Virus record (IMG/VR): IMGVR_UViG_3300019371_000256 | Location: 8,224 to 72,223 of that record | Length of the DNA stretch: 64,000 nt | Reading direction: 5' to 3' (one strand) | Source of the DNA: a virus | Lineage: Duplodnaviria > Caudoviricetes | Shown here: positions 14,181 through 55,076 of the stretch, piece by piece | How the letters are laid out: every line of letters begins with the position of its first letter | Position numbering within the stretch: the stretch's first letter is position 1 | Made by a program: the position numbers and the translations under genes | Notes under the pieces: generated by a model | What the model saw: the letters and a program-made list of their open reading frames with translations, nothing else | Database searches by the model: none | What the model was told of the DNA's origin: nothing

Positions 14181-14192
14181 GAAAGGTTAGCT

Positions 14193-15291: not shown

Positions 15292-15302
15292 GAAGGGGAT
15301 AT

Positions 15303-16319
15303 ATGTATAGACCTTGGAGCTTAAAAGAGATAGATAATATTCCCCGAAACGGCATTAAAGTATTTTCATGTTTTTCCTGTGGAGGTGGTTCCACTATGGG
15401 ATACAAGCTGGCCGGCTGTCAGGTGCTTGGTAATTGTGAAATAGATCAAAGGATTAATGAACTGTATAATAGAAATCATCATCCCTTATATTCATACAAT
15501 ATGGACATAAGGGATTTTGTTAAATTATCGGACAATGATCTGCCACCTGAATTATTTCAATTGGATATATTAGATGGATCGCCGCCATGTAGTGTGTTTT
15601 CAATGTCCGGGAACCGTGAGAACGACTGGGGGAAAGCCAAACGATTCCGGGAGGGCCAGGCAGCCCAAACGTTGGATGATTTGTTCTTTGAATTTATATC
15701 CGTCATTCGAAAATTAAAGCCAAAAGTATTCATAGCTGAAAATGTAAAAGGTATGCTACATGGCAGTGCAAAAGGTTATATAAGTGAGATCCTCAATAAA
15801 GTTGATGAAGCTGGATATAAAGTCCAGCTTTTTTGCTTAAATTCTGCCGTAATGGGCGTTCCACAGCGCCGTGAAAGAGTATTTTTTATTGGTCATAGAA
15901 AAGAGCTGCCATACTCAAAGTTGAATCTGGATTTTACCATGAGACCGATTCGCTTTGGAGAGATCAGGAGCTTAGCCGGTGGACCGGTTACTAAAGAGAC
16001 ATATCAACTTTTGAAGCACAAAACACCAACCGACCGCAATTTGGCTGATATCAATAACCGGCTGTTTAATAAACAGAGTAGATTTAATGCAGCTGTAGTT
16101 TGGGACAGCATTGTTTCGCCAACCATTACATCTAATGGTGATTTCCTGAGGGCTATCGACGACAGTAAATTTTCAGATATGGATTACATTAATTGCCAGA
16201 CGTTCCCTGTGGATTATGATTTTAATAAGACCAGCGTTCAATATGTATGTGGAATGTCTGTGCCACCGCTGATGATGAAGGAAATAGCAACTCAGATATG
16301 CAATCAGTGGTTTTTCTAA
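15303..16319 (+). CDS. Orphan DNA (cytosine-5)-methyltransferase
   Basis: Motif I FSCFSCGGG, motif IV GSPPC, ENVKG, QRRERVFF. Confidence 0.9.
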   Translation: MYRPWSLKEIDNIPRNGIKVFSCFSCGGGSTMGYKLAGCQVLGNCEIDQRINELYNRNHHPLYSYNMDIRDFVKLSDNDLPPELFQLDILDGSPPCSVFSMSGNRENDWGKAKRFREGQAAQTLDDLFFEFISVIRKLKPKVFIAENVKGMLHGSAKGYISEILNKVDEAGYKVQLFCLNSAVMGVPQRRERVFFIGHRKELPYSKLNLDFTMRPIRFGEIRSLAGGPVTKETYQLLKHKTPTDRNLADINNRLFNKQSRFNAAVVWDSIVSPTITSNGDFLRAIDDSKFSDMDYINCQTFPVDYDFNKTSVQYVCGMSVPPLMMKEIATQICNQWFF

Positions 16320-36406: not shown

Positions 36407-36787
36407 ATGGCAGAAAGTATTGTTACAGATATTGCAAAAGAAAAAATGCTGAAGGCAAGGGCAGGAGTTTCACCCTTACCACCTATTGTTGGGATGGCTT
36501 TTGGGGATGGGGCTAAAAATGTTTCGGGTGGAATAATTGCTCCAACCGCAAATCAAACAGCTTTGAACAATGAATTACTTAGAAAATCAAATGACAGTTG
36601 CAAAGAAATTACTAAATTAATTTATCGTTATTCTTGCACATTAGATGAAGGCGAATTGGCCAATAAATTTATAAATGAAATAGCCTTGTATGATTCTGAT
36701 GGAGATTTGATAGCGATAAAGACTTTCTTAGATAAGGGAAAAGATTCTGATCAAGAAATGGTATTTGAGATAGATGATACATTTTAA
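36407..36787 (+). CDS. Tail fibre attachment/collar-like protein
   Basis: MAFGDG, INEIALYDSDGDLIAIKTF..K.KD. Confidence 0.75.
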   Translation: MAESIVTDIAKEKMLKARAGVSPLPPIVGMAFGDGAKNVSGGIIAPTANQTALNNELLRKSNDSCKEITKLIYRYSCTLDEGELANKFINEIALYDSDGDLIAIKTFLDKGKDSDQEMVFEIDDTF

Positions 36788-36799
36788 AAGGAGGAGTTT

Positions 36800-37618
36800 A
36801 TGGCTGATTTTGAAATTGAAAAAGAGTATAGGGAACAACTGCGGAAATTAGAAACAACAGATCCTGCCCATGCTGACCTATTTAATTCAACGTTTTCAAC
36901 ATTAATAAATAATGATGCATACCTCAACGAGCAGAATAACAAAATCAAACAACCAGAATTTGATGATTCTGGCAGCGTAGATGAAATAAAAGACTTCCCA
37001 TCATTTTTATCATCTATGGTATCTAAGATGAGTATATTTAAGTTTTTTTCAGATTTGAAAGCTGGATTAAAATTTGTATTACATACAGGGCAAATAGTCA
37101 ATAACTGTGTTACGGACCGGTCAGACCTTCCAGGTTCGGCACATAATGATAAGGTTTTGATGGATAAATATTTGGCGTTAAGTAGTGATTTAAGTGAACG
37201 GCTTTTCTTTGGTGCTGGTACTGCGTTGCAAGCAAAGAACGGTACGACGTGGTACAGATTACAAATTAATCCTGATAATTCAACAGGTGTTTTTAAGTCT
37301 ATCGATAATGGTACCACATGGCCAATTTTTGAAAGATTTATAACAGAATCTGGATCAGTTAAAATAAAGAGTGGGTACATAAACATTGCAACGACTGCTT
37401 CTTACGGCAATGAATACCAGGGATCTATGTCCATTCCATCTATCATTTCAGCTTTTAGTCTTACAGATAAAACGGTTTTGACAGTCATTTGTCGGGGAGG
37501 CAATCTTATATCAGATGGTGCAATTGTCCCAAAACATGGTTCAGACGGTTCTATATTTACACTCTCTGGTGCTGTGTCGGGTACATACAGGATGCATTTC
37601 GATATACTTTATAAATAA
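36800..37618 (+). CDS. Tail fibre: constant N-terminus (36800-37180) plus the currently expressed cassette 1 (37181-37618)
   Basis: LETTDPAHADLFN..LINND N-terminal fibre motif; crossover site encodes LSSDL. Confidence 0.85.
   Translation: MADFEIEKEYREQLRKLETTDPAHADLFNSTFSTLINNDAYLNEQNNKIKQPEFDDSGSVDEIKDFPSFLSSMVSKMSIFKFFSDLKAGLKFVLHTGQIVNNCVTDRSDLPGSAHNDKVLMDKYLALSSDLSERLFFGAGTALQAKNGTTWYRLQINPDNSTGVFKSIDNGTTWPIFERFITESGSVKIKSGYINIATTASYGNEYQGSMSIPSIISAFSLTDKTVLTVICRGGNLISDGAIVPKHGSDGSIFTLSGAVSGTYRMHFDILYK
37180..37192 (+). repeat. Shufflon crossover site A (AAGTAGTGATTTA)
   Basis: In frame within the fibre gene (S-S-D-L). Confidence 0.85.
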
Positions 37619-37625
37619 TGATTAA

Positions 37626-37886
37626 TTAAATCCATGACCTCCACTGATTTCCCCAGCGCATACGATGTTTAAAGTCATTATTCCAGTCAAAGAATAGCTG
37701 GATACCACTCGGACCATTATTAAATATGATGATAATTCCATCTTTCCCCGTTGGCGTTTTTGTACTTCCGTCATTTCGTATGTCAATAGTAGCAATTTGC
37801 GTCTCCCGTAAATTATCCAGAGTTATAAGTGAACCATCTCCAATGGAATAGTTATTATATGGGAGGATGCTCGTTAAATCACTACT
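37626..37886 (-). other. Silent tail-fibre C-terminal cassette 2 (86 aa, SSDLTSILPYNN...RMRWGNQWRSWI), absent from the ORF track
   Basis: Open frame from site B to TAA, no start codon or RBS; knob-like C-terminus ending W-x-x-W. Confidence 0.85.
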
Positions 37887-37887
37887 T
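37875..37887 (-). repeat. Shufflon crossover site B (AAGTAGTGATTTA on the - strand)
   Basis: Identical to site A, inverted. Confidence 0.85.
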
Positions 37888-37982
37888 TATTAAAAAGATG
37901 GTAATAAACAAAATATTGTAATATTTTCCTTTTAAGTCTATAATTAAAAATGGATAAATAATCTGTATAGGGGGAATTATGT

Positions 37983-38867
37983 ATGTTTAAAAAGAAAAAT
38001 ACGATAGGGTTTATAATCGGAGCATTAGCAATAATTACTGTAGCAATAACTAACAACACGAATAGTTATGCAAAAAGTGATTTTGCCGTAACAACAAGGG
38101 ATGAATCTATTGAATATAATGGAGTTACATATAAAAGAATTCAAGTTGATGGTGGAGATTTATCAGGTTCAAGGCAACCTAATGTGGCGGTAGATGTTGG
38201 GTATGGGGATAGAACATATTGGGCGTTAACAAATGAGCATAGTCAGCTTGTGTATGTAATAGCTGACAAAATCACCTTGCAAGATGAAAACACAGAACAA
38301 GTTACTTCTGAGGGACGTTATTATAGTGATGAGGCAAAAGTACCTGGCACTGAAAGGTCAGACTTAGATGAAGGACATGTCATAGCAGATAGTCTTGGTG
38401 GAGTTTCGAATGCATACAATATAACACCACAAGATAGCACTTTAAATCGCCATGGAGATCAAGCCTATATGGAGAAAGTGATTCGTGATGCAGGTGGTTG
38501 TGAACATTTCATAGCTACTATCACATATCCAGATACTTCAACTCAAATTCCGTCACATTATCATTATGAATATATACTCAAAGGGAATGCGGTTGTAGAT
38601 GATTTTGATAATATAAATCCTGACGAAGTTAATAAAGCACAAGCAGATAAACAACAAAAAGAATCAAATGTAACAAGTGGAAATAATAATTCTAGTGAAT
38701 CTAGTATAAATGAACAAGAGGAACTGAAAAAGATAGATACTAATGGCAATGGTAAAGTTACAATAGCCGAAGCAAAAGCAGCTGGATACAAAATGCCAAT
38801 CTATTCAACTCATTGGTTGTATAAATATATGGATGACCGAGATGGAGATGGTATGGTAGGAGAATAA
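37983..38867 (+). CDS. Secreted DNA/RNA non-specific endonuclease (streptodornase-like) with a C-terminal Ca-binding-like motif
   Basis: Signal-peptide-like N-terminus; DEGHVIADSLGG, NITPQ..TLNR; DTNGNGKVT and DRDGDG. Confidence 0.85.
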   Translation: MFKKKNTIGFIIGALAIITVAITNNTNSYAKSDFAVTTRDESIEYNGVTYKRIQVDGGDLSGSRQPNVAVDVGYGDRTYWALTNEHSQLVYVIADKITLQDENTEQVTSEGRYYSDEAKVPGTERSDLDEGHVIADSLGGVSNAYNITPQDSTLNRHGDQAYMEKVIRDAGGCEHFIATITYPDTSTQIPSHYHYEYILKGNAVVDDFDNINPDEVNKAQADKQQKESNVTSGNNNSSESSINEQEELKKIDTNGNGKVTIAEAKAAGYKMPIYSTHWLYKYMDDRDGDGMVGE

Positions 38868-38880
38868 TAGTCATGTTAAT

Positions 38881-38907
38881 AGGAGCCGTAAGGCTCCTGT
38901 TTTTTTA
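38881..38907 (+). terminator. Terminator after the DNase gene
   Basis: AGGAGCC-GTAA-GGCTCCT followed by a T-run. Confidence 0.8.
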
Positions 38908-38925
38908 TAAAGAAAGGAGTTCTTA

Positions 38926-39663
38926 ATGGAAAAAGTTAAAATAGGAGATAAGGAACTATTCTATGATATCCAAGAGATTCTTCCCATTAATACACATGTT
39001 TTGCGTATCGTTTTTGCTAACTCACTGCCTGCAAGTTACGGAGACATTACTACGTATACAGCTGGGGGAATTGAAGGAGTTACGCTTACTGGTTACGATA
39101 CAGTTTATCGTGATGAGGGCAAGACAGTTTATTTAAGCAATGATAAAAGTGTTTATATACCAGTGGAAACCTCTACCGGGCCTATGGATCCACCGGAACC
39201 ACATTCCCCCACTATGAAGGAACTAAAGGCATCAAAGCTTAGGGAAATATCGGCCGCCTGTGAAAAGTCAATCTATGCAGGAGTAGATGTTAATTTAGCT
39301 GATGGAGTAATAGAACATTTTTCCCTTACTGAACACGATCAGCTCAATTTGTTCGGAAAACAAATCCAGGTGTCAGCAGGTGTAGAGAAAATAGAATACC
39401 ATTCAGATGGTATGCCATGCCGATATTATAATGCTGCTGATATGCAGACTATAATTTCGGCAGCTATGTGGCATGTATCTTACCATACTACATATTGTAA
39501 TGCACTTAATATATGGATATCCGGGATTGAGCAAGCAGGGGATCTGGAAACTATTTCCTATGGGGTGGAAGTTCCCGAGGCTTACCAATCGGACGTACTT
39601 AAAGCATATTTTATACAGAAGGCTGCCATGACGGAAGGAGAAAGAGATGAAACAGCAAGCTAA
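38926..39663 (+). CDS. Tail-fibre-associated phage protein (DUF4376-like C-terminus)
   Basis: EHFSLTEHDQLN, YHSDG.PCRYY, SYHTTY.N. Confidence 0.7.
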   Translation: MEKVKIGDKELFYDIQEILPINTHVLRIVFANSLPASYGDITTYTAGGIEGVTLTGYDTVYRDEGKTVYLSNDKSVYIPVETSTGPMDPPEPHSPTMKELKASKLREISAACEKSIYAGVDVNLADGVIEHFSLTEHDQLNLFGKQIQVSAGVEKIEYHSDGMPCRYYNAADMQTIISAAMWHVSYHTTYCNALNIWISGIEQAGDLETISYGVEVPEAYQSDVLKAYFIQKAAMTEGERDETAS

Positions 39664-40063
39664 ATACATATTTTTATTAGTGTCCGGTGGATTTATGTAC
39701 AGCATTATAGAAATTTTATATCGGGGGTATACCCACTGGACCATGTTTATTTTGGGCGGTTTATGTTTTATATGTCTAGGGTTAATTAATGAGTTGATTC
39801 CTTGGAGTACGCCACTCTGGAAGCAGATGCTTATTGGTATGGCTATAATTACATGCTTGGAGTTTATAACTGGGTGTATAGTCAATATATGGCTTGGGTG
39901 GGGCATTTGGGATTACAGTAATTTGCCAGGTAATATATTTGGCCAGATTTGTCCTCAGTTCACTTTCTTATGGTTTTGGATAAGCGCTGCCGGGATAATA
40001 TTAGACGATTGGCTTAGATATTGGCTTTTTGAAGAAGAACGGCCACATTATAAATTAATATAG
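39647..40063 (+). CDS. Multi-pass membrane protein (putative ABC-permease-like family common in such prophages)
   Basis: IEILYRGYTHWTMF.LGG, LEFITG.IVN, WDYSNLPGN..GQIC. Confidence 0.75.
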   Translation: MKQQAKYIFLLVSGGFMYSIIEILYRGYTHWTMFILGGLCFICLGLINELIPWSTPLWKQMLIGMAIITCLEFITGCIVNIWLGWGIWDYSNLPGNIFGQICPQFTFLWFWISAAGIILDDWLRYWLFEEERPHYKLI

Positions 40064-40078
40064 GAGGATAAGGTTACG

Positions 40079-40384
40079 TTGACTTTTTGGGATTATGTAA
40101 AAGAGTCTTGGCCGGGATGGGTGTGTTCAGCAGCTGTCCCGGCCATCATTTATTTATATACACAGGTTATGGCCAGCCGTAATGGCGTAAGAGCCCTTTT
40201 GAGAGCAGAAATAATAAGAGTGTATAACAAGTATCATGATGATTTAAAGTATTGTCCAATTTATGTTAAACAATCCATGGAGGATATTTATAAACAGTAT
40301 CATGCTCTGAAAGGTAATGGAGTTGGTACAAAGCTTTATGAAGAAATTATGGAATTACCAACAGAAAAAGAGGAGGAAAATTAA
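40079..40384 (+). CDS. Holin-associated / hemolysin-like small membrane protein
   Basis: One N-terminal TM; ALLRAEI, YHALKGNG.GT. Confidence 0.65.
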   Translation: MTFWDYVKESWPGWVCSAAVPAIIYLYTQVMASRNGVRALLRAEIIRVYNKYHDDLKYCPIYVKQSMEDIYKQYHALKGNGVGTKLYEEIMELPTEKEEEN

Positions 40385-40588
40385 ATGAACAATGAAAAGA
40401 TTTTAAAGTGGGTAAGAGCTGCAGGGGTAAGAGCAGTTAAGACAATGGCGCAGACGGCCATTGCAACCATTGGGACTACAGCGGTAATGTCTGGGGTAGA
40501 TTGGATTATGGTAGGATCAGCAACGGCACTGGCCGGGATTCTTTCTATACTTACATCGGTGGCTGGGCTACCGGAATTAAAAGATTAA
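40385..40588 (+). CDS. Holin (r1t-like)
   Basis: AAGVRAVKTMAQTA; SILTSVAGLPE. Confidence 0.9.
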   Translation: MNNEKILKWVRAAGVRAVKTMAQTAIATIGTTAVMSGVDWIMVGSATALAGILSILTSVAGLPELKD

Positions 40589-40590
40589 TT

Positions 40591-40609
40591 TGTTGCGACC
40601 GTCGCAACA
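40591..40609. repeat. Palindrome TGTTGCGACCGTCGCAACA (copy 2)
   Basis: Perfect 9-bp arms around one base; related to 17130-17146. Confidence 0.85.
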
Positions 40610-40663
40610 CTATGGACCTGGGACATCCTGGGTCCTTTTTCTATTGAAAGGAAGGGGAATATC

Positions 40664-41536
40664 ATGATTAGTAATTGTGGACATGACGAAAATGGAAAAT
40701 ACACAGGTGGTAAAGCCGGGGATCAGACTGGTGGAGAGTACGCAGTAATTAATTGGTATAACCGTCCATGGGCCTGTGTGTTAAGGTATCCAGATATTAA
40801 TGTAGGGTTAAAGATTGCGGAGATTTCTAAAGCTGCAGCAATTAATAATAACGTGGGTTATGATCAGGGACAGAGACTTACATATTACAACTGCTTACGA
40901 GCTGTAAATTGGGATCCTGCTAAGATCATAACTCCATGTGAGGGTGACTGTAGTGCAACAACGGCAGCAAATGTGATTGCCGCCGGAAATCTATTAGGTT
41001 TTAGTAAGTTAAAATCTATCAATCCATCAAACACTACATCGACATTGCGTAAGGCTCTTGTTGCAGTAGGATTTGAACTTTTGACAGACAGCAAGTACCT
41101 TACAGGTGATAACTATTTGCTTCCGGGAGATATTCCACTATATGATGGACATCACGTAGCAGTTAACCTTGATTATGGATCAGAAGTTAAGCCAGCAGAA
41201 GAGAAGAAATCCGGCTGGATAAAAATAACAGATGGATGGATGTATTATAATGGTGATACCGATTTGCCGGTTCGTAATGATTGGGTAGAGGATCAGAGCA
41301 AGTGGTACTGGTTTAACGCGGCCGGGATCATGGTCACGAATACCTGGTATCAGTATAATGCTGCATGGTATTATTTAGGACCGGATGGGGCTATGTGCCA
41401 GTCACAGCTTGTGGAGAATTCCGGGAAGATTTATGCAGTGGACACAGATGGAAAAATGGTTACAGGTGAAATTTTGTTATCTACTTTGAGCGACGGGACG
41501 CTGCAGTACAAAGGTTTAATAGGAGACGGCAAGTAA
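40664..41536 (+). CDS. Endolysin (NlpC/P60-CHAP-like catalytic domain plus cell-wall-binding repeats)
   Basis: GDCS Cys and GHHVA His; WYWFNAAGIM and WYYLGPDGAM repeats. Confidence 0.85.
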   Translation: MISNCGHDENGKYTGGKAGDQTGGEYAVINWYNRPWACVLRYPDINVGLKIAEISKAAAINNNVGYDQGQRLTYYNCLRAVNWDPAKIITPCEGDCSATTAANVIAAGNLLGFSKLKSINPSNTTSTLRKALVAVGFELLTDSKYLTGDNYLLPGDIPLYDGHHVAVNLDYGSEVKPAEEKKSGWIKITDGWMYYNGDTDLPVRNDWVEDQSKWYWFNAAGIMVTNTWYQYNAAWYYLGPDGAMCQSQLVENSGKIYAVDTDGKMVTGEILLSTLSDGTLQYKGLIGDGK

Positions 41537-41730
41537 TATTACTTTGAACCCAGAACCGGTCATTAACTGTAATGCGCTATGTATGTTTCAAATCATGATG
41601 GGGTGCAGTATATAGGTACATTTTAATTAATGTTGGCGGGCTCTTGTCCTGAGTCCGCCATTAAAAGTACTTTTCAATTTTAGGGTCGTATGGTATTATA
41701 GTTAAGTAGAGTGGCAGAAAGAGAGGCCAC

Positions 41731-41916
41731 ATGAGTAGTAATAATAACTGTCTGAAAGCAATCAATTTAATTCATTTCGATGGCAAATCAATTAGTCTAA
41801 ATAATGTATGTATGTCTCATACAATTTTTCAAGAAAACCAAGTTTTACAAGCAGCAATCTACGGTGATATGATAGTTATAACTTCAGCAATGGAAGAAGA
41901 AAAAGAAAGTAATTAA
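41731..41916 (+). CDS. Small hypothetical accessory protein
   Basis: GAGAGG RBS and an upstream TGGTATTAT -10-like box. Confidence 0.5.
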   Translation: MSSNNNCLKAINLIHFDGKSISLNNVCMSHTIFQENQVLQAAIYGDMIVITSAMEEEKESN

Positions 41917-42040
41917 TTTGTATTATAGCCACTCTACTTAAATTTTACTTTAATATACAAAATTGATTTTTTAAAGTAATAAGATTATAATAAAAAAACG
42001 ATTTTAAACTGAATATCAATTATATAATAATCAAATTTAT

Positions 42041-42730
42041 TTGGAGGAAGTTTATATGGATAAAGAGTTAATTAATACCGAGAATATTGATGAAATATCA
42101 ATAAAAAGAATAATTGATGGTTTAACAGGTTTTATATCTGGAAGTAAGGCAGACTATGCACACTCAGCAAATAGATTATTGAAAAGCCTATTTGCTCATG
42201 ATTTTTTATTTCAGTTACAAAAAGAATGGGATAAATATGTCGATAGAGGTAATATTGACTTAGATTATAAAAAATCAAAGCCATTCTTAAATAGTTTATC
42301 TGAATTAATGGACTATCTTGATACGGATTTACCAAATGATGAGATAGCTCTAACTTTAAAAAAGTTATTCTTTATACCAGCTTTTAAAGACTATTACAAA
42401 GAAGACAAGCTTTTAGCAATTGAATATATGAAAATAATAAGAAAGTTAACGCCAGGTGAAATGGTGGTTTTGTTTACAGCATATAATAATGTTGGAATAA
42501 GTACAGACAGTGCTTCAAAATGGTTGGAAATAATTGCAGAGAAATCCACTCTGAAATATACAGAACTAGTAGAGCTGCATGAAAAGAAATTAATTGATTT
42601 AAATCTGATTACAAAACGTAAATATGAGGATAATAGTGGATTATGGGTTGGAAAATATTCTCGCTTAACAAGTTTGGGGTATAACTTATGTCATTTCATA
42701 AAATTGTATGATGAATTTAATGAGAGATAA
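42041..42730 (+). CDS. Low-GC accessory protein, possibly Abi-alpha/DUF4393-like (C-terminal wHTH)
   Basis: IIRKLTPGEMVVL and RLTSLGYNLC resemble that family; likely start is ATG 42056 after GGAGG. Confidence 0.45.
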   Translation: MEEVYMDKELINTENIDEISIKRIIDGLTGFISGSKADYAHSANRLLKSLFAHDFLFQLQKEWDKYVDRGNIDLDYKKSKPFLNSLSELMDYLDTDLPNDEIALTLKKLFFIPAFKDYYKEDKLLAIEYMKIIRKLTPGEMVVLFTAYNNVGISTDSASKWLEIIAEKSTLKYTELVELHEKKLIDLNLITKRKYEDNSGLWVGKYSRLTSLGYNLCHFIKLYDEFNER

Positions 42731-42813
42731 AAAATTGTATTGAATCCTTATACTAATAATGAAATACAACTTTATTTTTTGGTGGTATTTCATTATTAGT
42801 GTAAGGATTTATA

Positions 42814-43830
42814 TTACGGTACATATTTTCTATGGGCTTCCTGTACGGTGGCTTTGGCAATAGCTGCATAGCACTGCTTTGTTGTGTCCAGTTGGACGTG
42901 CCCTAATTTCTCGGCCACAAGTTCCAGAGGAGCCCCCTTATTAATCATATCTGTGCCAACGGTGCGTCGGAAAACATGAGGCGTTAATTTGACTGCAGCA
43001 AGATCATTGTCTCTATTCTTGATTCGTTTTAATATATTTCTTACTGTGCTACTACTTACACGGTTATGAGGTTTTTGATTTGTTACAAATAAAGCCTGGT
43101 TATTATCGGTACGGCTTTTAAGATACCGTTCTAAATGAACCTTTGCTTGGCCGTTAAAATACACCTCTCTTTCCTTACGTCCTTTTCCGTATACAATGGC
43201 TTTCATATCGGAAAAATCAACATCATTGATATTTAAGCGGCAAAGCTCAGATACCCGTATCCCAGAGGAATATAGTAAATCGCATAATGCTAATTCCATT
43301 TCATTTTTGCAGGCGCAGCGAACCTCTTCCCGCTGTTCAGCTTTAAGGGTCGGACCTATACGACGTTCTACTTTGGTTTCTTTTAGCTTTTTGGCTGGGT
43401 TATCAGGTAGCATATCCTCTTCATATAGCCAACCGAAGAAGCTCCTCATGCATATTAGCTTACTATTATATGTACGATCTTTCCATTTTCGAAAAAGTTT
43501 TCCGTATGCAAGATAACCTTTTAGATCTGAATATGATATTTCAATAATATTTTTATTTATATAATCAAGCATATTTTGAAGATTATTTTTATAATTTGCA
43601 ATACTGGCATCAGTGCATCCGTCAAGCTTCATTTGTATTAGATATTGTCTTAAATATTCTTCCGTACAATCAATTTTGGTAGATAAACCTGTTCTGGCCT
43701 CTTCTTTAATTAATTTATAATTTCCTAAATACATATATATGAGTAATTTTGTTTCGTGTATTTTTTCTGTTTTTATTATCCCTGCTATTTCAAACTGCAA
43801 TACTAAATCATTTATAACATTTTCTTCCAT
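42814..43830 (-). CDS. Tyrosine recombinase (XerD-like); candidate shufflon invertase
   Basis: LYSSGIRVSEL (R), VYGKGRKER (K), TPHVFRRT (HxxR), LGHVQLDTT..Y (H, Y); adjacent to sites C and D. Confidence 0.92.
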   Translation of the reverse strand: MEENVINDLVLQFEIAGIIKTEKIHETKLLIYMYLGNYKLIKEEARTGLSTKIDCTEEYLRQYLIQMKLDGCTDASIANYKNNLQNMLDYINKNIIEISYSDLKGYLAYGKLFRKWKDRTYNSKLICMRSFFGWLYEEDMLPDNPAKKLKETKVERRIGPTLKAEQREEVRCACKNEMELALCDLLYSSGIRVSELCRLNINDVDFSDMKAIVYGKGRKEREVYFNGQAKVHLERYLKSRTDNNQALFVTNQKPHNRVSSSTVRNILKRIKNRDNDLAAVKLTPHVFRRTVGTDMINKGAPLELVAEKLGHVQLDTTKQCYAAIAKATVQEAHRKYVP

Positions 43831-43855
43831 GGTGCACCCCTGTAAACTTATTACA

Positions 43856-43920
43856 GTTAGAATATAACCATTATCGTTATATTAGAGAAAAAGTTAGAAT
43901 ATAACACATTCCGTTATTCC
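43856..43920. promoter_or_regulatory. Two GTTAGAATATAAC-N7-GTTAT boxes upstream of the recombinase
   Basis: 13-bp direct repeat at 43856 and 43893, each forming an imperfect ATAAC-N7-GTTAT palindrome. Confidence 0.55.
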
Positions 43921-43933
43921 GGGATTTTGTTTT

Positions 43934-43946
43934 AAATAGTGATTTA
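43934..43946 (+). repeat. Shufflon crossover site C (AAATAGTGATTTA)
   Basis: 12/13 identical to A and B; in frame (N-S-D-L) with cassette 3. Confidence 0.85.
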
Positions 43947-44468
43947 ATGTATAAAGGTAATGCCAATGATTTAGATACGTTAATCAATGAAGAATACACT
44001 GATAAGGTTATAACAAACAGTTATAATTACTCCTCCACGGGAGTGCCAGAAAACTCAAGCGGATATGTTATTACATACTACAGGACACCTGCCAGCGTAT
44101 TACAAAATTTATATACTTTCACAGGGAACTGTTATACAAGGCGCAGAGACATTAATACAACACCTACATGGGTAAAACTCCCATCAAATGAAGATTTAGA
44201 AAACAAATTATCTACCAATGCTTTTTACATTACGAATATAAAGACTTTAGCTGATTTGTATTCCGCCTATGCCAGTGGTATCATATTTGTTTATAATAGT
44301 ACTGGAAATGTCCCAAGTTATGGTAGTGGAATTATATTACGATGTTCAAACTCTAACTTTAAACTCTTACTTGTAGATGATGATACTGATGCAATGTATC
44401 TATGGTCATTAACGGGTGCGGCTGGAACAGCTCTAATAATTAGTGCGAATAAAACCAAGGTTATTTAA
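43935..44468 (+). other. Silent tail-fibre cassette 3 (177 aa, two knob-like units)
   Basis: NSDLMYKGNANDLD...; no RBS before ATG 43947; NSYNYSSTGVP..YTRR...W pattern. Confidence 0.8.
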
Positions 44469-44475
44469 TGATCAT

Positions 44476-44790
44476 TTATGCTATCATCTTCCAGGCAAGC
44501 CAGCTTAGGTATCCATAAAAATGATTTCTGTAATATACATTGTTCCTTTTGATATCAAACAGTATTTGAACTCCGTGAAAACTTACTTTGGATAAAATAG
44601 GATAAGTGTTGAATGAAAATACGAATACCGCTTCTCCTCCTGTCGCTCCAGAAATGGAAGGACCATTGGTGATATCTAAAACATACGAAAAATAAAATCC
44701 GCTGGTTATAGCATTTAAATCTAAATTCTCAGTATAGGGTGGAGAAATCATTAATTTGGGAAGTAATGTTTGTGCACCTAAATCACTATT
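44476..44790 (-). other. Silent tail-fibre cassette 4 (104 aa)
   Basis: Open frame NSDLGAQTLLPK...DLNAITSGFY...NGP...VYYR...WLAWKMIA. Confidence 0.8.
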
Positions 44791-44791
44791 T
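44779..44791 (-). repeat. Shufflon crossover site D (AAATAGTGATTTA on the - strand)
   Basis: Identical to site C, inverted. Confidence 0.85.
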
Positions 44792-44899: not shown

Positions 44900-45844
44900 A
44901 TGAGTAATCTGTTTGTTTTTGGTAATGGTTTTGATTTGGCTCATGGTTTTGATACAAGCTATGATGATTTTAAAATATGGCTTAGTGAAAAATATGATGA
45001 ATCATCAGATTCGTATGAGTCGTTTCCTAAATACAACACTAATTATAAAAGGTTTGAATCATTTAGTTTTGAAAGCATGTCTTATTTTTTCTATAATCTT
45101 ATTTACAATGTAGTTGGTAGTGATTGGAGACAATTTGAAGCAGCATTGTCAAAACTTGATTGGGTTTCAATAATCGAAAATGAATGTTATGGCAGTAATT
45201 ATAAAGAACGAATGTTCCAAGCTGAGGATATAGCTGTACAAATAAGAGATTTTGCTCACGTTTTAAAAGATAGTCTATTTAAAAGTTGGGCTGAGGAAAT
45301 TGACATTTCACACCCTAAGTCAATTTCAGAAGAACTTATAGGATTGATTGATAATGAACATGATTATTTCTTGAATTTCAATTATACTGATACACTTGAA
45401 AAACACTATAATATCAATAATGTTTGCCATATACACGGACAATCTTCTAAACATGATAGTTTGATCGTGGGACATTCGGGAAAAGATAAAATAGAGTTTG
45501 ATAGCTATTTGACTATTACTTATTCTTACATTCGACAGATTTATGAAGATTATCGAAAAGATACTAAAAACATATATAAAAAGCACATGGATTTTTTTAA
45601 TAAATTATATAATAATAATATTACTAATATTTATATACACGGTTTTTCATTTTCAGATGTTGATATGTTTTACTTAAAAAAAATCGCACTAAAACTAGAT
45701 ACTTCTGTGGTACGTATTCATCTACATAGCTATTTAGAGGAGGACTTTGAAGGCTTCAAAAAGAAACTCATTAGATGTGGATTCCATAATATTAACATTA
45801 TACAGTTTAGATTATCTGATATCAATGATGTATGTGAGATATGA
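44900..45844 (+). CDS. abiH: AbiH-family abortive infection protein
   Basis: LFVFGNGFDLAHG..TSY..F, FLNFNYTDTLE, HIHG, IHGFSFSDVD. Confidence 0.85.
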   Translation: MSNLFVFGNGFDLAHGFDTSYDDFKIWLSEKYDESSDSYESFPKYNTNYKRFESFSFESMSYFFYNLIYNVVGSDWRQFEAALSKLDWVSIIENECYGSNYKERMFQAEDIAVQIRDFAHVLKDSLFKSWAEEIDISHPKSISEELIGLIDNEHDYFLNFNYTDTLEKHYNINNVCHIHGQSSKHDSLIVGHSGKDKIEFDSYLTITYSYIRQIYEDYRKDTKNIYKKHMDFFNKLYNNNITNIYIHGFSFSDVDMFYLKKIALKLDTSVVRIHLHSYLEEDFEGFKKKLIRCGFHNINIIQFRLSDINDVCEI

Positions 45845-46017: not shown

Positions 46018-46278
46018 ATGATAAAAATTTTACTCTCTTCAAGGCTAGGTGACCGAAAATGGACACAAGCAGATTTGGCGCGAAAAACAGGTATTCGGCC
46101 AACGACAATTTCGGAGCTGTACCATGAGATGGTAGAAAGAGTAAACTTAGAACATTTGGATCTGATTTGCGAAGCATTAGACTGCGATCTCAGCAACTTA
46201 ATTGTATATGAACCAAATAAAGAGCCAAAAATTGTACATACCATTAATGGGTCACCTAAGCCAAAGGACATAAAGTGA
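46018..46278 (+). CDS. XRE/Cro-C1 HTH transcriptional regulator
   Basis: WTQADLARKTGIRPTTISELY; LDLICEALDC. Confidence 0.9.
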   Translation: MIKILLSSRLGDRKWTQADLARKTGIRPTTISELYHEMVERVNLEHLDLICEALDCDLSNLIVYEPNKEPKIVHTINGSPKPKDIK

Positions 46279-46357: not shown

Positions 46358-46561
46358 GGTGACACCCAAATGGCACCCATATGTTGAAAATGCTATTGAT
46401 ATTGTACGGAATGAGCGGTTAAATTGAACGTATTATAGCATATGTGTACGCTAACGATTACCGGTCAATATTGAGTTTGAATAAAAAATTTGAGCCCGCA
46501 AAGCCTTATAAAATAAGGATTTGTGGGCTCTCTTTATGTCGTTTGGTACTATTTTGGTATT
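46358..46561. other. Putative att junction: core ATTGAGTTTGAATAA (46470-46484) with arm-like repeats on both sides
   Basis: Core reads I-E-F-E-stop like the 3' end of guaA; GACACCCAAATGGCACCCAT on the left; hairpin 46492-46530 and TTTGGTACTATTTTGGTATT on the right. Confidence 0.55.
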
Positions 46562-47621: not shown

Positions 47622-49112
47622 TTGGAGGATACAACGTTGATAACAGGCGAAGTGAGAAATAAGATAGATAAAATATGGACAGACATGTGGGCAGGAGGAG
47701 TAACGAATCCTTTGACAGTAATTGAACAGATTACATATCTGATGTTTATTCGCTCTTTGGATGAAAAAGAATTAGAGAATGAAAGCTTTGAAGCACTGGC
47801 AAGAGAAAAGATGGAAAAAATCTTTCCACAAGATGAAAATGGTCAATCCATGCGATGGAGCAGATTCAAAGATAAAGACGCCAGAGAAATATTTGAAATT
47901 ATTGGACAAAAGGTATTTCCATTTATTAAAAGTTTGAATGGTAATAATGCATCCGCATTCTCTAGATATATGGAAAATGCGATGTTTATGATTCCTACAC
48001 CACAAATTTTGCAGAAGATCATTACTGGATTGGAAGATTTGTACGAGCATGATTTGACAGGGCTTGATATGCAAGGTGATCTCTACGAATATATGCTGGA
48101 CAAACTTGCTACCGCGGGGCAAAATGGTCAGTTTCGTACACCAAAGCATATAAGAGAACTGATGGTGCAATTGGTAAATCCAACACCAGATGATACCATC
48201 TGTGATCCGGCTTGTGGAACAGCGGGATTCTTAGTATCGGCATCTGAATATATCAGAAAGAACTTTGAAGGGACTATGACAAGTGAGCAATGGGAGCATT
48301 TTGACAAAGGAGCATTTTCGGGATTTGATACGGACACAACAATGCTTCGTATCTCTGCAATGAATCTGATGCTTCATTCCATTAGTAATCCTGATATTGA
48401 TTACAAAGATAGTGTATCAAAACAGAATGAGATTATTTCAAAATATACGGTGTGCCTTGCAAATCCACCATTTGCAGGAACTGTAGATTCAGAGAGTATT
48501 AATGACAATCTGAAAGCAATCTGTAGTACCAAAAAGACAGAGCTTCTATTTGTGGCATTATTCCTTCGTATGCTAAAAAAGGGTGGAAGATGTGCATGTA
48601 TCGTACCAGATGGAGTTTTATTTGGTAATTCAAAAGCTCATAAAGAGTTAAGAAGAGAACTTGTTGAAAATCAACATTTACAAGCAATCATATCTATGCC
48701 GAGTGGAGTATTTAAGCCATATGCAGGGGTATCAACCGCAGTTTTGGTATTTACAAAGACAGATGATGGTGGAACGGATAAAGTCTGGTTCTATGATATG
48801 AAAGCGGATGGAAAGAGTCTGGACGATAAACGTCAGGATACGGATAAAAATGATATTCCTGATATTTTAGAACGCTGGAATCATTTAGAATTAGAAACGG
48901 ACAGAGTAAAAACAGAACAATCCTTTTTTGTAACAAAGAAGGAGATTGAGGAAAATGAATATGATCTGTCGATTAATAAGTATAAAGAAGTAGTCTATGA
49001 AAAGGTAGAGTACGATTCATCAGAAGTGATTATGGAACGAATTGATAAAATTGATGAAGAAATTGTTGTACTGAAAGCGGAATTGAAAACATTATTAAAT
49101 TTAGATTTGTAG
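47622..49112 (+). CDS. hsdM: Type I R-M methyltransferase subunit
   Basis: GQFRTP, DPACGTAGFL, NPPF; intact. Confidence 0.95.
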   Translation: MEDTTLITGEVRNKIDKIWTDMWAGGVTNPLTVIEQITYLMFIRSLDEKELENESFEALAREKMEKIFPQDENGQSMRWSRFKDKDAREIFEIIGQKVFPFIKSLNGNNASAFSRYMENAMFMIPTPQILQKIITGLEDLYEHDLTGLDMQGDLYEYMLDKLATAGQNGQFRTPKHIRELMVQLVNPTPDDTICDPACGTAGFLVSASEYIRKNFEGTMTSEQWEHFDKGAFSGFDTDTTMLRISAMNLMLHSISNPDIDYKDSVSKQNEIISKYTVCLANPPFAGTVDSESINDNLKAICSTKKTELLFVALFLRMLKKGGRCACIVPDGVLFGNSKAHKELRRELVENQHLQAIISMPSGVFKPYAGVSTAVLVFTKTDDGGTDKVWFYDMKADGKSLDDKRQDTDKNDIPDILERWNHLELETDRVKTEQSFFVTKKEIEENEYDLSINKYKEVVYEKVEYDSSEVIMERIDKIDEEIVVLKAELKTLLNLDL

Positions 49113-49114
49113 GG

Positions 49115-50269
49115 ATGATTGATATGGAGATTAAAAAACTTAAAGATATAAATGAATATTCTAGCCAAAGTGTAAATCCTTCAAAATCGCCAGATATTGT
49201 ATTTGAAGTTTATAGTGTACCAAGTCATGCAGACAACAAACCAGAGTATCTTCGCGGTGATGAAATTGGTTCAACAAAAGTAGTTATTGAAGAAGGTGAT
49301 ATTTTGCTATGTAAAATAAATCCAAGGATTAATAGAGTCTGGGTTGTAGATAAATCGTCTGAACATTTGAGTGTTGCTTCATCTGAGTGGATAGTAGTTA
49401 GAAGTAAAGAAAATAATCCAGAGTATTTGGCGTGGTATTTTAGATCTGATGGATTTAAAACTCGTATGAATAGTGGTTTGACTGGAATTGGTGGATCATT
49501 AACACGAGCACAGCCAAAGCGAGTAGCAGATTATCCAGTTCCAATTAGAGAAAGAAAAGAACAAGATGAAATAGTATTAGTTTTAAATAAAGTAAATAAA
49601 ATAATAGATAGCAGAAAAGAACAGTTAGAACAGATGGATAACCTAATCAAATCCCGATTTGTCGAGATGTTTGGGGATCCTTTAAGTAATCCAATGGGCT
49701 GGGAAGAAGTTGTTATTACAGAGCTGTGCGAGAAAATATGCGGTGGTGGTACACCTTCAAAATCTCATCCAGAGTATTTCGTGGGGCGTATTCCTTGGGT
49801 GTCACCGAAAGATATGAAATCTATGGTTATTAGAGATAGTCAAGATCATATAACTGAAGAGGCCATTAAGAATAGCTCAACGAAGATTATTCCAGAAAAC
49901 TCGGTACTTATGGTAATAAGGAGTGGTATTTTAAAACATACACTTCCTGTTGCTATTAATGCAGTGCCTGTGACTATTAACCAAGATATGAAAGCTTTTA
50001 TTCCAGGGAAAAAAATACTTACAACATTTTTGATGAACTACTTTAAAGCGATAGAACCAGATGTATTAAGCGGTGTAAGAGGAGTAACGGCTGATAATAT
50101 CGATTTCAAAGATTTTCAAAAAAGACTGGTAATTTTACCACCAATTGAAATTCAGAAGCAATTTGCCAACTTCGTCCAACAAGTCAACAAATTGAAAATT
50201 GAAGTACAGAAATCATTGGATGAAGCGCAGGTATTGTTTGATTCGTTGATGCAAGAGTATTTTGAGTGA
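49115..50269 (+). CDS. hsdS: Type I R-M specificity subunit
   Basis: Two TRDs; SRFVEMFGDP, GGGTPS, PPIEIQKQFA. Confidence 0.92.
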   Translation: MIDMEIKKLKDINEYSSQSVNPSKSPDIVFEVYSVPSHADNKPEYLRGDEIGSTKVVIEEGDILLCKINPRINRVWVVDKSSEHLSVASSEWIVVRSKENNPEYLAWYFRSDGFKTRMNSGLTGIGGSLTRAQPKRVADYPVPIRERKEQDEIVLVLNKVNKIIDSRKEQLEQMDNLIKSRFVEMFGDPLSNPMGWEEVVITELCEKICGGGTPSKSHPEYFVGRIPWVSPKDMKSMVIRDSQDHITEEAIKNSSTKIIPENSVLMVIRSGILKHTLPVAINAVPVTINQDMKAFIPGKKILTTFLMNYFKAIEPDVLSGVRGVTADNIDFKDFQKRLVILPPIEIQKQFANFVQQVNKLKIEVQKSLDEAQVLFDSLMQEYFE

Positions 50270-50291
50270 TAAGATAAGGAAAGCTATTGCC

Positions 50292-51697
50292 ATGACAAAT
50301 GAATATGAAGAACAGAATGCATATAAAAAAGCATGAAATTGTTTGTACGATTTTGTAAAGATATGAATATCACAACTAAGGAGCAACTTTCAAACTTTAC
50401 TTTCGAAGAAATTCCTTCTGAATATAAATATAAATATAAATATGGAGCCTCTGATGAAATCAGAGCTTCTGATGATCCTGATAATACACAAATAATAAAT
50501 GCTATTTATATAATTTTATGGGGAGAATTTTTTGATATAAGAGATAAGAAAGATGTTGGTTCTTAGTCTGATAGTAAAAAAATAGAAGGTAGTCAGTCAT
50601 CATACAGAGGCGACACAATGAATAGTTTTTGTTCTATGTTTGGAAGTGATGATACAGGATGGAATAGAATGAAGCATATTCTAGGTGTGGAAATCGATAA
50701 TGACTGGTCTGATATAATAAAATTTAGAAAAATTTATCATACATTAGGAAATTTTTTACTTATTCCAAATAGAAAAAATGTAAATAGAGTAAAAGGTACC
50801 TCTGGCAGACTAACAGACAGTTTTGAGACACTTTTATCAAATGCATATATGTACTATAATGAAAAAGAAAATGGAACAAATAAGCTTATTATGTGTGGTT
50901 ATAGAAAGGTTTTTGAAGAAAATATAGAATACAAGAATACATATAATGAAGATTTTTTGTTTAAATTAAAATATTTTATTTGCAAGATTATTATTATAAT
51001 GAAGGAAAGCCAACAGTCAAGTTTAAATTTAGTTTCAGAAGGGAAAAAAGGCTTAGCTGATTATGTATCTACAAATTTGAATACTGATGAATATTATACA
51101 CGAAGTCATTTGCAAAAATTGGATATCATACAGACGGTTGGTTCGGCTTCTTGGTTAGGCATAATTAATGACAAAGATTTATTTCAGGAAAGCTTGGATT
51201 GGTTTCGAGGATATATAAATTTTATTTGTGAAAAGATAGGATATGAGTTGCTTTACCAAATGATCGACAATTGTAGAAGTATAAATGAAAATAAAGATTC
51301 ACAATTAGAAGCGTCATTGTGTTATGGAACATGTATGTATATTTGTTCATTTATTGAAAAAATATTAAAAATAATATACATAGAACTAAAAAGAGAAATA
51401 GAATATATTCCAATTGAAAATATAACTTTAGGGGAATTGCTATCAGACGGGAATTCATTGTATGCGGAAATGTTAGGAGAATATCAATTAAAGCATTTAA
51501 GATATTTTCTATTGACAGACGGCGATAAAAAAATTGGTACAAATTATCGTAATTCACTGGCACATTATAGTTCAATTACTTCTGAGAATATTAATATGTT
51601 TCTTGTTGGAAAACTAATGTTTCTTTTTACAAATATAATAACATCATTTTTTCATTACTTTTTTATGAAACAAAGTGAAGAAAATATAGATAATTAG
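50292..51697 (+). pseudogene. Interrupted nuclease-like + HEPN (DUF4209-like) gene between hsdS and hsdR
   Basis: ORFs 50333-50566 and 50618-51697 are in frame across TAG 50564-50566; possible frameshift near 50330; YRGDTMNSF, HTLGNFLLIP and C-terminal NYRNSLAH (RxxxxH). Confidence 0.65.
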
Positions 51698-51707
51698 GGG
51701 AGGATAT

Positions 51708-54700
51708 ATGTCAAACTTCGAATTCTTAACATCAAAAACAGAATATGAGCTTTTTGCAGTAGCGTGCGTTGAGGCGGAGAAGGTCTTGACATCATCACCT
51801 GCCATGAGTGCAGTAGGAGCTAGAAAAGCATTAGAACTTGCTGTGAAATGGGTATATTCCGCTGATAACTCAATTTCTATCCCGTACAAAGATAACTTAC
51901 AATCATTGATTCATGAACCAAGTTTTCGTTTTGCCTTGGATAGTAAGACATGGGGCAAGATGCCATTTATCATTAAATTAGGTAATTTGTCAGTACATAC
52001 GGATAAGAAGGTGTCAAAAAGTGACGCTGTTTTATCATTACAAGGTTTGTTTGAATTTGTAGAGTGGATTGATTACTGTTACGGAAATGATTATCAGGAA
52101 CGTAACTTTGATGAAAAACTGATTCCAGGTGAAAAAGTCGCTGTTGATGTATCAAAAATCAAAGAGCAGGAGAGTTTACTTTCTGAAAAGGAAAGTGAAA
52201 TCAAAGCCTTAAGAGAGAAAATTGAGGCGATGTCTGCTACCTATACTGCTGAAAAAGGGCAGCATAAAGAAGAAAGAACTTTTACTGCGAAAGATTTATC
52301 GGAGTTTAAGACGAGAAAAAGATACATTGATGTAGATTTAAAATTGTTAGGTTGGGATTTTGACCATGATGTAAAAGAAGAATTTGAAGTACAAAATATG
52401 GATGGAAAATCAGGTCAGATGTGATATGCTGACTATGTTTTGTTTGGCAAAGACGGTCTTCCATTGGCGATTATAGAAGCAAAGAGGACAAGCAAAGACC
52501 CGAATATCGGAAGGCAGCAGGTTTTGCTTTATGCCAAGTCTTTAGAAGAGCGTTATGGACGCCGTCCTATGATGTTTACCACGAATGGGTTTGAAACCTA
52601 TTTCTGGGATGATGAAAGCTATCCTCAGAGAAAAGTCAGCAGTATTTTTTCCAAAAATGATTTGCAGAAGTTGATGAATCGAAGACAAGAGAGAAAAGAT
52701 TTATCAACCATTCGCATAGATGATAAGATTACCGATCGCTATTATCAGAAAGAAGCGATCAGAGCAGTATGTGACAGTTTGGTGCAGGGGCATAGAAAAA
52801 ATCTTCTCGTGATGGCAACTGGTACAGGCAAGACCAGAACCGCTTCCAGTTTGACAGATGTATTGTCAAGAGGGGGCTATGTTACCAACGTTTTATTTCT
52901 TGCCGACAGAACGGCATTAGTAAAACAGGCAAAAGATGATTTTAAAAATTATCTTCCAGATATGAGCCTTTGTAATTTGCTGTCCAATAAGGAGGATAAG
53001 AATGCAAGAATCATTTTTTCTACCTATCCAACTATGTTAAATGTCATTGATTCGGAAAAGACAGAGGATGGACAGCGATTATTTTCTCCATCCCATTTTG
53101 ATCTGATCATAGTAGATGAAGCACATAGAAGTATCTTTAAGAAATATCGTACCATTTTTGAATACTTTGATTCAATTGTTGTAGGATTAACTGCTACGCC
53201 AAAAACAGATGTCGATAGAAATACCTATGATTTTTTTGAAATGGAACATGGGGTTCCGACCTATGCATATGACTATGAAACTGCTGTGAATCATGATTAT
53301 GTGCTGGTGCCATATTTTAACATTGAAACATCAACGAAATTCTTAGAGGAAGGAATTTCATACGAAGAGTTGGATGAAAAAGATAAAGAACGTTACGAAG
53401 ATGATTTCGGTGATGATGAAGGAAATATGCCAGAATTTGTGCCTTCACCTACCATGAATAAATTTGTATTTAACGAAAAGACAGTGGATTTAGTGTTGCA
53501 GGATTTGATGGAAAATGGAATCAAGGTTGAGGGCGGAGATCGAATTGGAAAAACAATCATTTTTGCTCAGAACAAGACTCATGCTGAATTTATTTTAGAA
53601 CGATTCAATAAATTATATCCAAAGCTGAAAGGTGGATTTGCAAAGCGCATTACTTGCGAAGATACCTACGCCCAGTCTGTCATTGATGAATTCAAGATTG
53701 CGAATAAGCCACCATATATTGCAGTTTCTGTCGATATGATGGATACCGGTATCGATGTACCAGAAGTAGTCAATCTTGTATTCTTTAAGAAAGTGCGCTC
53801 AAAGACAAAGTTCTGGCAGATGATAGGACGTGGAACCAGACTGTGCAAAGACCAGACTTTTGTTGACAGACAGGATGGAGAGTATACAGATAAAAAGAGA
53901 TTTTATATTTTTGATTACTGTGGAAATTTTGAGTATTTCCGTGAAAATAAAGAAGGTATTGAAGTAAAAGATACAGAAAGTTTGAGCGAAAAGAGTTTTA
54001 GCAAAAGAGTCCGATTGATACAAAATCTTCAATCATCAGATTTCTTAGGAACGGAATACCAGAACTGGAGAAGTGAGCTTGTAAGTACTGTGCTACAGCA
54101 AGTACAGTCACTCAACAAAGAACTGGTTGCTGTACACATGCAACTTCGTCATGTGGAAAAATTCGAAAAGCAAGAAGCATTTACTTGTATCTCAGAACAG
54201 GATTATCATGATTTGTCCAGGCATGTAGCACCATTGGTAACGATGGATGATAAAGATGAGTATGCAAAGCGATTTGATAATCTGATGTACGGCTTGATGA
54301 TTGCTCAGATGGAGATGTTACCAGGATTTAAGAAAGCGAAAAATCAGGTCTACACATTGATGGGAGCATTGGAACAAAAAGCAATTATTCCTAAGATTAA
54401 AGAAAAACTTTCTTTGATTCAGACGGTAACAACAGATGAGTTCTGGGCTTCTGGTGATATTTTGCTTTTTGAAAAGATTCGAGAGGAATTAAGAGATTTG
54501 ATTAAACTTACAGTGGATGAGGGCACTGGTAAACGCCCGATTATGACAAGTCTTGCAGATCCTATTCTATCTAGAAAAGAAGGCGATATATTAGATGCAG
54601 CATATGATTTTGAAGATTACCGGTTAAAAGTGAATCGATACATAGAACAACATAAAGATCATATTGCAATCTGGAAGCTTCGAAATAATGTAAAACTGGA

Positions 54701-55076
54701 ATCGGGAGACTATCAGGCACTCGAAAGCATCTTTACAAAAGAACTGGGCGATGAAGAAGATTACAAACGAGAGTTCGGAGATACACCATTTGGTCTTCTT
54801 ATCCGTAAGATAGCAAAGCTTGAGCATGAAGCTGCGATGAAAGCATTTTCTAAGTTTATCAATGATGAATCATTGAACCAACAGCAGATTGTTTTTGTGA
54901 AAAAGATTGTGGATTATGTGGAGCAGAATGGATACATAGAAAATATAACGGAACTGATGAAACCGCCGTTTGATAAACCAATGAGCTTTGTGAAGCTGTT
55001 TGATAGTAAGAGGCAGGCTGAGATTGTGAAGTTGGTGAATGAGATTAAGGAAAATGCTGTGGAAGTGGCGGGGTAA
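51708..55076 (+). pseudogene. hsdR: Type I R-M restriction subunit interrupted by an in-frame TGA (52422-52424)
   Basis: ...GQM-TGA-YADYVLFGKDGLPLAIIEAKR; MATGTGKT, DEAH, QMIGRGTR motifs otherwise intact. Confidence 0.9.

Follow-up and report, generated by a model that had tools for sequence, protein, structure and literature searches.

The 64,000-nucleotide stretch of DNA analysed here (referred to as the window; positions 8,224 to 72,223 of the IMG/VR virus record IMGVR_UViG_3300019371_000256) carries what is most probably a multi-state DNA-inversion switch, or shufflon, for the tail-fibre tip of a prophage. The switch region comprises a tail-fibre gene, four copies of a 13-bp site designated A to D, four alternative C-terminal cassettes and a tyrosine recombinase gene, the last of these located in the middle segment (M) between sites B and C. 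The prophage itself is predicted to be temperate and myovirus-like and to belong to a Lacrimispora species.

The 13-bp sequence AARTAGTGATTTA was found exactly four times in the window, at 37180 (+), 37875 (-), 43934 (+) and 44779 (-), against an expectation of 0.03 copies from dinucleotide shuffles, none of 100 of which gave four. The whole 4.53 Mb genome holds five copies, the single extra one being 176 kb off, where base composition alone leads to an expectation of about 1.7 copies per genome. Site A (AAGTAGTGATTTA; 37180..37192, plus strand) lies inside the fibre gene, in which it is read S-S-D-L, and the remaining three, site B (AAGTAGTGATTTA; 37875..37887, minus strand), site C (AAATAGTGATTTA; 43934..43946, plus strand) and site D (AAATAGTGATTTA; 44779..44791, minus strand), are each an exact copy of the 13-bp site. 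All four read [S/N]-S-D-L in the frame AGT/AAT AGT GAT TTA. The sites are short, rare elsewhere in the genome, present in both orientations and positioned at the constant/variable junction of each cassette. The third base of the site, which is variable (R), went with the outer flank at all the recombinant junctions observed, and this places strand exchange within TAGTGATTTA.

The tail-fibre gene (36800..37618, plus strand; 272 amino acids, aa) consists of constant codons 1-127 followed by site A and cassette 1 (37181..37618, plus strand; 145 aa including SSDL), the cassette that is currently on the expressed fibre. Comparison with 574 database homologues of the fibre showed that conservation stops at ...KYLALSSD and that everything beyond it differs. 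The open frames headed by the sites measure 145, 86, 177 and 104 aa for cassettes 1 to 4, and the last three are silent: cassette 2 (37626..37886, minus strand) has TAA TAA directly before it, cassette 4 (44476..44790, minus strand) a TAA stop directly before it, each giving an in-frame stop immediately 5′ of the site, and cassette 3 (43935..44468, plus strand) is without a start codon at its site. Each pair is convergent, with 7 bases separating the stop codons. No similarity was detected in pairwise comparison of the four frames, and neither Pfam nor PHROGs returned a family for any of them. Cassette 2 showed 44% identity to residues 301-382, which form the C-terminal end of P0123, a full-length fibre homologue of 390 residues, and cassette 4 showed 37% identity to the C-terminus of the 355-aa protein P0244, which was the sole C-terminal match of an exhaustive search, a word-based search for longer homologues having found none. 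Cassette 3, a knob-like fibre tip, resembles clusters of pyocin knob domains (0.95-0.96) and of tail-fibre tips by language-model features (ESM Atlas), and the Atlas's own model gives template-modelling (TM) values of 0.5-0.6 to knob, XkdV and tail-fibre tips. As far as their sequences tell, the cassettes look like start-less, mutually dissimilar C-termini resembling the tips of tail receptor-binding fibres. The first-pass annotation had reported four 13-bp sites in the [S/N]-S-D-L frame, heading four different C-termini of 145, 86, 177 and 104 aa, together with a complete tyrosine recombinase adjoining site C; the positions and frame proved exact, the C-termini are indeed open and mutually dissimilar frames at the sites, and the recombinase has its domains and all six catalytic residues, as detailed below.

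A second motif accompanies the cassettes. The palindrome TTAATGATCATTTA (44465..44478) lies between cassettes 3 and 4, and the form (A)AATGATCATTTA, with arms like those of the crossover site and a palindromic GATC centre, marks the tail-to-tail junction of many cassette pairs (window 44465-44478 and 37613-37625; L039 9445-9460 and 14230-14245; L031 12022-12038 and 14451-14467; L056 around 9611-9625); L039 and G007 carry two each, and L056 has it as well. In the 4.53 Mb genome the exact 12-mer of the palindrome occurs three times, one of them at this locus. It may represent a second, orthogonal site class, or it may be merely a product of overlapping double stop codons.

The 338-aa tyrosine recombinase that we propose as the invertase (42814..43830, minus strand) is XerC/D-like, with matches to Pfam PF00589, PF13495 and PF02899; by Pfam it has Phage_integrase and SAM-like N domains only and is without an arm-binding domain. 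Alignment to XerD (1a0p) and an XerC-like protein (4a8e) showed that R192, K219, H285, R288, H311 and Y321 are intact. The prophage encodes a second recombinase, a 456-aa integrase with Arm-DNA-bind_4 and SAM_3 domains beside guaA (L044:5697-7067), and the final 15 bases of guaA, ATTGAGTTTGAATAA, are duplicated at 46470..46484 (plus strand) of the window, forming the attR core and the right end of the prophage. Given this separate arm-type integrase and the duplicated att core, the 338-aa recombinase was ruled out as the prophage integrase, and on the same grounds the idea of a Mu-like transposable phage, prompted by a gp48 match, was dropped. The prophage is about 58 kb long and ends at about 46484, so that all four sites and the 338-aa recombinase lie inside it, as do an AbiH gene (44900-45844) and an XRE gene (46018-46278). 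A search for serine recombinases found none on this contig; the genome has six PF00239 matches, all on other contigs and in open frames of 472-569 aa.

In the mechanism we propose, the constant 127-codon head of the fibre would end at the 13-bp site, and the four cassettes, which start with the same site in the same frame and are arranged in convergent pairs, A-B and C-D, with 6 kb between them, would be exchanged by the arm-less XerC/D-like recombinase, encoded in M, acting on inverted sites. Since the sites alternate +,-,+,-, the permitted flips would be those of pair 1, of M, of pair 2 and of the whole A-D span. Recombination of A with B would flip 0.7 kb and place cassette 2 on the fibre, and recombination of A with D would flip 7.6 kb, placing cassette 4 on the fibre and inverting M with its lysis and recombinase genes; a subsequent flip of the local pair would then bring in cassette 3, and recombination of B with C would flip M only. 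From this site geometry, 16 isomers and 4 fibre variants would be expected. We infer that the 338-aa protein is the catalyst, that exchange takes place in this strain and that a change of cassette alters host recognition; what supports the recombinase acting at the sites is the co-occurrence of recombinase and site in other genomes and contigs (G007, G461, G449, G463, G465 and G466), described below.

The first-pass annotation had suggested multi-state host-range switching by inversion and had proposed looking for permuted cassette orders in homologous prophages. Such orders were found in five relatives (L062, L054, L057, L039 and G028), and these isomers support switching between several states. 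Among close relatives, with flanks 92-99% identical, homology ends at the 13-bp site in each case, and the alternative arrangements have their breakpoints inside the sites. In L062, an IMG/VR contig with a recombinase of 97% amino acid identity and flanks of 92-95% nucleotide identity to the window, the fibre constant part runs in frame through the site into cassette 4 (97.8% nucleotide identity; 102/104 aa), giving an intact open reading frame (ORF) of 231 aa. After it come a new partner cassette of 96 aa, the site B outer flank and M, which is in forward order and 94% identical. L054 and L057, two ENA contigs with accessions 43 apart (ERZ27260953 and ERZ27260996), are 99.5% identical over 806 nucleotides that include the fibre constant part, a shorter relative of cassette 3 on the expressed fibre, a partner cassette and a second site, and they diverge exactly at that second site, whose third base is not the same in the two (G versus A). 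Beyond it, L057 continues with M in forward order, and L054 continues with a membrane-protein moron, the recombinase on the fibre strand and an Amidase_2 endolysin on the opposite strand; the gene order and strands of L054 indicate that M is inverted there, as against its forward orientation relative to the fibre in L057, L062 and L039. L054 is a natural instance of the state with inverted lysis genes. L039, a Logan contig with a recombinase of 88% amino acid identity and a tail module of 95% nucleotide identity, has four sites in the same layout with a different cassette on the fibre, and its homologue of cassette 1 (83% aa identity) is silent in the distal locus beside the recombinase. In G028, from another species of the genus, only the right end of the prophage is left, consisting of the attR core, the XRE gene (98.8% aa identity) and the cassette 1/2 pair (99.6% nucleotide identity; 99% for cassette 1 itself, here also silent). 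The pair occupies the distal position with cassette 1 toward the XRE gene, and its outer site has A at the variable third base, like site D of the window. This is the arrangement that the model predicts from recombination of A with D followed by that of B with C. At the level of sequence, the junctions in all five match what inversion would produce.

The G028 remnant, at L032 13820-15175 (G028:C2), comprises attR, the XRE gene and a single pair of cassettes, each with its site, beside decayed hsdR fragments; no close homologue of the recombinase was found in the G028 genome, the best being 37% identical over two thirds of the protein. That such loci decay to remnants is the observation that would favour a relic, in which the switch worked in ancestors and is frozen here, with the recombinase silent or inactive and the three silent cassettes left as stored DNA. 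We regard this as unlikely, because the four sites are exact, the six catalytic residues are intact and all four cassettes are open, and because relatives of 92-99% identity differ by clean, site-bounded rearrangements, which argues for recent activity.

The same rearrangements bear on whether a recombinase is needed at all. Mosaic exchange of tail-fibre modules is common, and the database fibre homologues diverge at this boundary also where neither a site nor a recombinase could be seen, as would be expected if general or illegitimate recombination at the conserved coding motif N-S-D-L, rather than this recombinase, had shuffled the tips during modular fibre evolution. However, RecA-type exchange needs more than 13 bases of homology, and start-less silent cassettes in inverted pairs would be useless without inversion. 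In addition, the site tracks one recombinase clade across unrelated tail types while its central bases differ between more divergent lineages, and the inversion of M alone, as between L054 and L057, is no exchange of fibre modules. We consider this origin of the arrangements very improbable.

Recombinases of 40-69% identity to the 338-aa protein showed the same layout around sites that differ only in their central bases. In Lacrimispora sphenoides (G007; recombinase 57% identical) four TAAATAGCAATTTA sites are arranged as a pair, a 135-aa ORF, the recombinase and a second pair, and one of the sites lies inside a fibre of a different type, where it is read N-S-N-L. G449 (40%) has four TAAGTAGGGATTT sites, read L-S-R-D-L, in the same layout, and Lacrimispora amygdalina (L056; 58%) has a single pair immediately before the recombinase. 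The central site bases are uniform within each genome (AGCA in G007 and AGGG in G449), and the AGTG class of the window recurs only in the closest relatives of the recombinase (72-97% identical). In G461 (69%) the recombinase is found before the small terminase gene, and the genome has just two exact copies of the site, which lie inverted to each other in the fibre gene at a distance of 23 kb from the recombinase. With no site within 10 kb, this 69%-identical recombinase (locus L006) had been taken for a counter-example until the whole genome was scanned. G463, G465 and G466 (61-62%) have two or three inverted site pairs each, against 0-1 control hits; these pairs are 4-25 kb apart and at most 46 kb from the recombinase, and in two of the contigs tail genes part the second pair from the fibre. 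Together, the pairs and distant sites of G461, G463, G465 and G466 indicate that split pairs and action at a distance are traits of the family.

These homologues also bear on what the recombinase is for. Many of them sit before a small terminase gene, far from any fibre, and trans-acting invertases have a precedent in Mpi of Bacteroides (cited in PMC6109161), which would fit a 338-aa protein engaged mainly in dimer resolution, late-gene control or satellite mobilisation while an unlinked invertase flips the fibre. This division of labour seems hardly credible to us, given that no small serine invertase was found (the six PF00239 matches being the 472-569 aa frames on other contigs), that the G461 recombinase precedes the terminase gene and yet is accompanied by a unique inverted site pair in its fibre, and that the order pair, recombinase, pair is kept down to 40% identity.

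Several observations weigh against a working switch of the proposed kind. Relatives and short metagenome contigs are the entire source of the isomer evidence, in which L054 and L057 are assumed to represent a single phage type. In the state produced by recombination of A with D, the holin and endolysin genes run counter to the late operon, an apparent cost, and the model leaves unexplained what keeps the direct pairs A-C and B-D from deleting the DNA between them. In addition, many homologues of about 70% identity, located between replication and packaging modules, have no site within 10 kb, which was the flank examined and in which most IMG/VR loci had none; the whole viral records G462 and G464 are without any site, and a 46%-identical homologue (L037; G250) showed no recognisable site. 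The siteless homologues and the two siteless records suggest that the family may have other roles too.

One such role could be broader than the fibre. The siphophages L040-L042 encode a 72%-identical recombinase ahead of the terminase gene, and between their Phage_min_cap2 and scaffold genes is an inverted AATAGTGATTT pair (L040 17540-18433, L041 8396-8960 and L042 8015-8579); its outer flanks are 100% identical between samples, and the enclosed 0.5-0.9 kb is unrelated or diverged. What the sites bound here is a replaceable, non-fibre segment. We tentatively entertain, as a rather doubtful extension, that the sites are the currency of a recombinase-mediated cassette exchange network among Lachnospiraceae phages, in which the same enzyme and site also swap non-fibre segments such as those of L040-L042. 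A tip would then be a unit bounded 5′ by a directional crossover site and 3′ by a palindromic-spacer site with matching arms (AAAT-GATC-ATTTA), and single cassettes or pairs would be swapped between co-resident phages. If this were true, a corollary would be that lysis competence is phase-variable through the flipping of M.

Returning to inversion of the fibre tip, the features of the locus support placing it in a known, Rin-like kind, the tyrosine-invertase shufflon of a phage receptor-binding protein. The Rin shufflon, in which a tyrosine invertase targets the receptor-binding proteins of phages (PMC6109161), was described in prophages of Bifidobacterium breve, Bifidobacterium longum and Eggerthella lenta (PMC6109161; PMC8778435). 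As here, Rin is a phage-encoded, arm-less XerD-like tyrosine recombinase separate from the lambda-type integrase of the prophage; short asymmetric sites lie where a constant N-terminus meets several dissimilar, start-less C-terminal receptor-binding cassettes; several isomers exist; and the avoidance of deletion between direct sites is equally unexplained. The two differ in that the Rin hosts are Actinomycetota and the host here is of the Bacillota (Lachnospiraceae), in that the Rin site is the 11-bp TTCCCTAACCC and the site here the 13-bp AARTAGTGATTTA, and in that the Rin cassettes are contiguous between Rc and rin whereas those of this locus form convergent pairs with two sites each, split by 6 kb. 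Because the 6-kb split carries the lysis and recombinase genes, switching to the distal pair would invert those genes. In relatives of this locus, moreover, the recombinase can lie 21-46 kb from the sites. The likeness to Rin is one of described features; Bifidobacterium is absent among the organisms named in the recombinase matches to deposited phages. In those searches, megablast of the 8.6 kb region gave no match to deposited phages, and tblastn with the recombinase as query found no match that exceeded 38% identity over at least 80% of its length, with one partial match of 44.5% over 62%.

The first-pass annotation had named Gin, Cin and Rci as analogues and had drawn attention to cassette pairs split about 6 kb apart. 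The split is present here, although it is common in the recombinase family and not unique to this locus, and the three analogues do share features with it, although the closest system, the Rin shufflon, had gone unnamed. Next after Rin in closeness are Min of the plasmid-prophage p15B and Rci of R64. Like this locus, the shufflon of R64 and IncI plasmids (Rci, sfx, pilV) employs a tyrosine recombinase, proceeds by inversion only, joins a constant adhesin N-terminus to alternative C-termini and has several short asymmetric sites, conserved only in the core and on one side. The R64 target, however, is the conjugative-pilus adhesin pilV on a plasmid, with contiguous segments, in contrast to a chromosomal prophage tail fibre whose segments are split by essential phage genes. 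The tail-fibre C-termini exchanged by site-specific inversion in the Min (p15B), Gin (Mu) and Cin (P1) systems are a further likeness, with Min resembling this locus in its several sites and many isomers, and the simple two-state systems Gin and Cin in a convergent cassette pair, as in each pair here. Gin, Cin and Min are small serine invertases that work with an enhancer and Fis, which sets them apart from the tyrosine recombinase found here in a prophage having no serine invertase gene. Enrichment of tail fibres and tyrosine recombinases at programmed-inversion loci was the finding of a survey whose text names no Clostridia or Lachnospiraceae (PMC9881135). What is new here is the host family (Lachnospiraceae), the site, and convergent pairs split by 6 kb with lysis and recombinase genes between them.

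What phages of the gut and the environment can infect is limited chiefly by host range, and the locus and its relatives would define a clade of Lachnospiraceae phages with programmable receptor-binding tips and a recombinase family whose site is short, conserved and readable. This offers a rule for metagenome searches, namely the recombinase clade together with inverted A[AG]TAGNNATTTA pairs, and the switch would account for assemblies that break or disagree at fibre genes. It also offers for study a compact tyrosine invertase with lineage-specific spacers, and the split geometry poses a question absent from Rin and Min, that is, how lysis and recombinase genes are expressed once they are turned around.

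The middle segment M (6046 bp, 37888..43933), between inverted sites B and C, contains a gene for a secreted endonuclease (37983-38867) with a terminator-like site directly 3′, followed by genes for a DUF4376 protein (38926-39663) and a CmpB-like membrane protein (39647-40063), a 101-aa ORF (40079-40384), an r1t-type holin (40385-40588), an endolysin with choline-binding repeats (40664-41536) and two small ORFs (41731-41916 and 42041-42730); the assignments are from Pfam. The recombinase gene is part of M and lies on the strand opposite to the other M genes, and 42743-42809 is probably a two-way terminator between convergent genes. Promoter-like sites were not commoner than in shuffles (46 vs 50.4). 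Between the recombinase start codon and site C (43855-43917) there are two copies of GTTATATTCTAACT on the minus strand, 37 bases apart, a pair that is kept in L054 and that may serve the recombinase gene as operator or promoter elements. Morons at the edges of the invertible segments vary: the secreted endonuclease, of NS type, is missing from L039 and L057, L054 has a 258-aa membrane protein (894-1670) adjoining the recombinase, and the place of AbiH, which in the window is flanked by site D and the XRE gene, is taken in L039 by a different ORF of 234 aa.

The window covers the late half of the prophage. Upstream of the fibre gene are those for the tape measure, Baseplate_J, a Mu gp48-like protein and a 126-aa protein with a tail-collar fibre N-terminal domain (36407..36787, plus strand; Pfam PF12571, PHROG 1780), and 5′ of the window, beside uvrA and guaA, are the integrase, CI-type repressors and RecT/YqaJ genes. 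The fibre is split (36407-37618) into the 126-aa collar N-domain ORF and the 272-aa fibre ORF, separated by a 12-base gap with a ribosome-binding site, and the two form a single protein in many homologues of 390-440 aa. In keeping with integration at the guaA 3′ end, an arm-type repeat, GTGACACCCAAATGACACCC, occurs near both ends of the prophage (L044 5582-5674; window 46359-46484), and it was also found in the G028 remnant. Clusters of defence genes were noted at 7327-16319 and 47622-55076 of the window. The early region of the prophage contains an AAA_15/AbiEii-like ATPase, a 987-aa SIR2 protein, a DUF4062 protein and a C5 methylase, and past attR there is a type I restriction-modification system with an additional gene between hsdS and hsdR.

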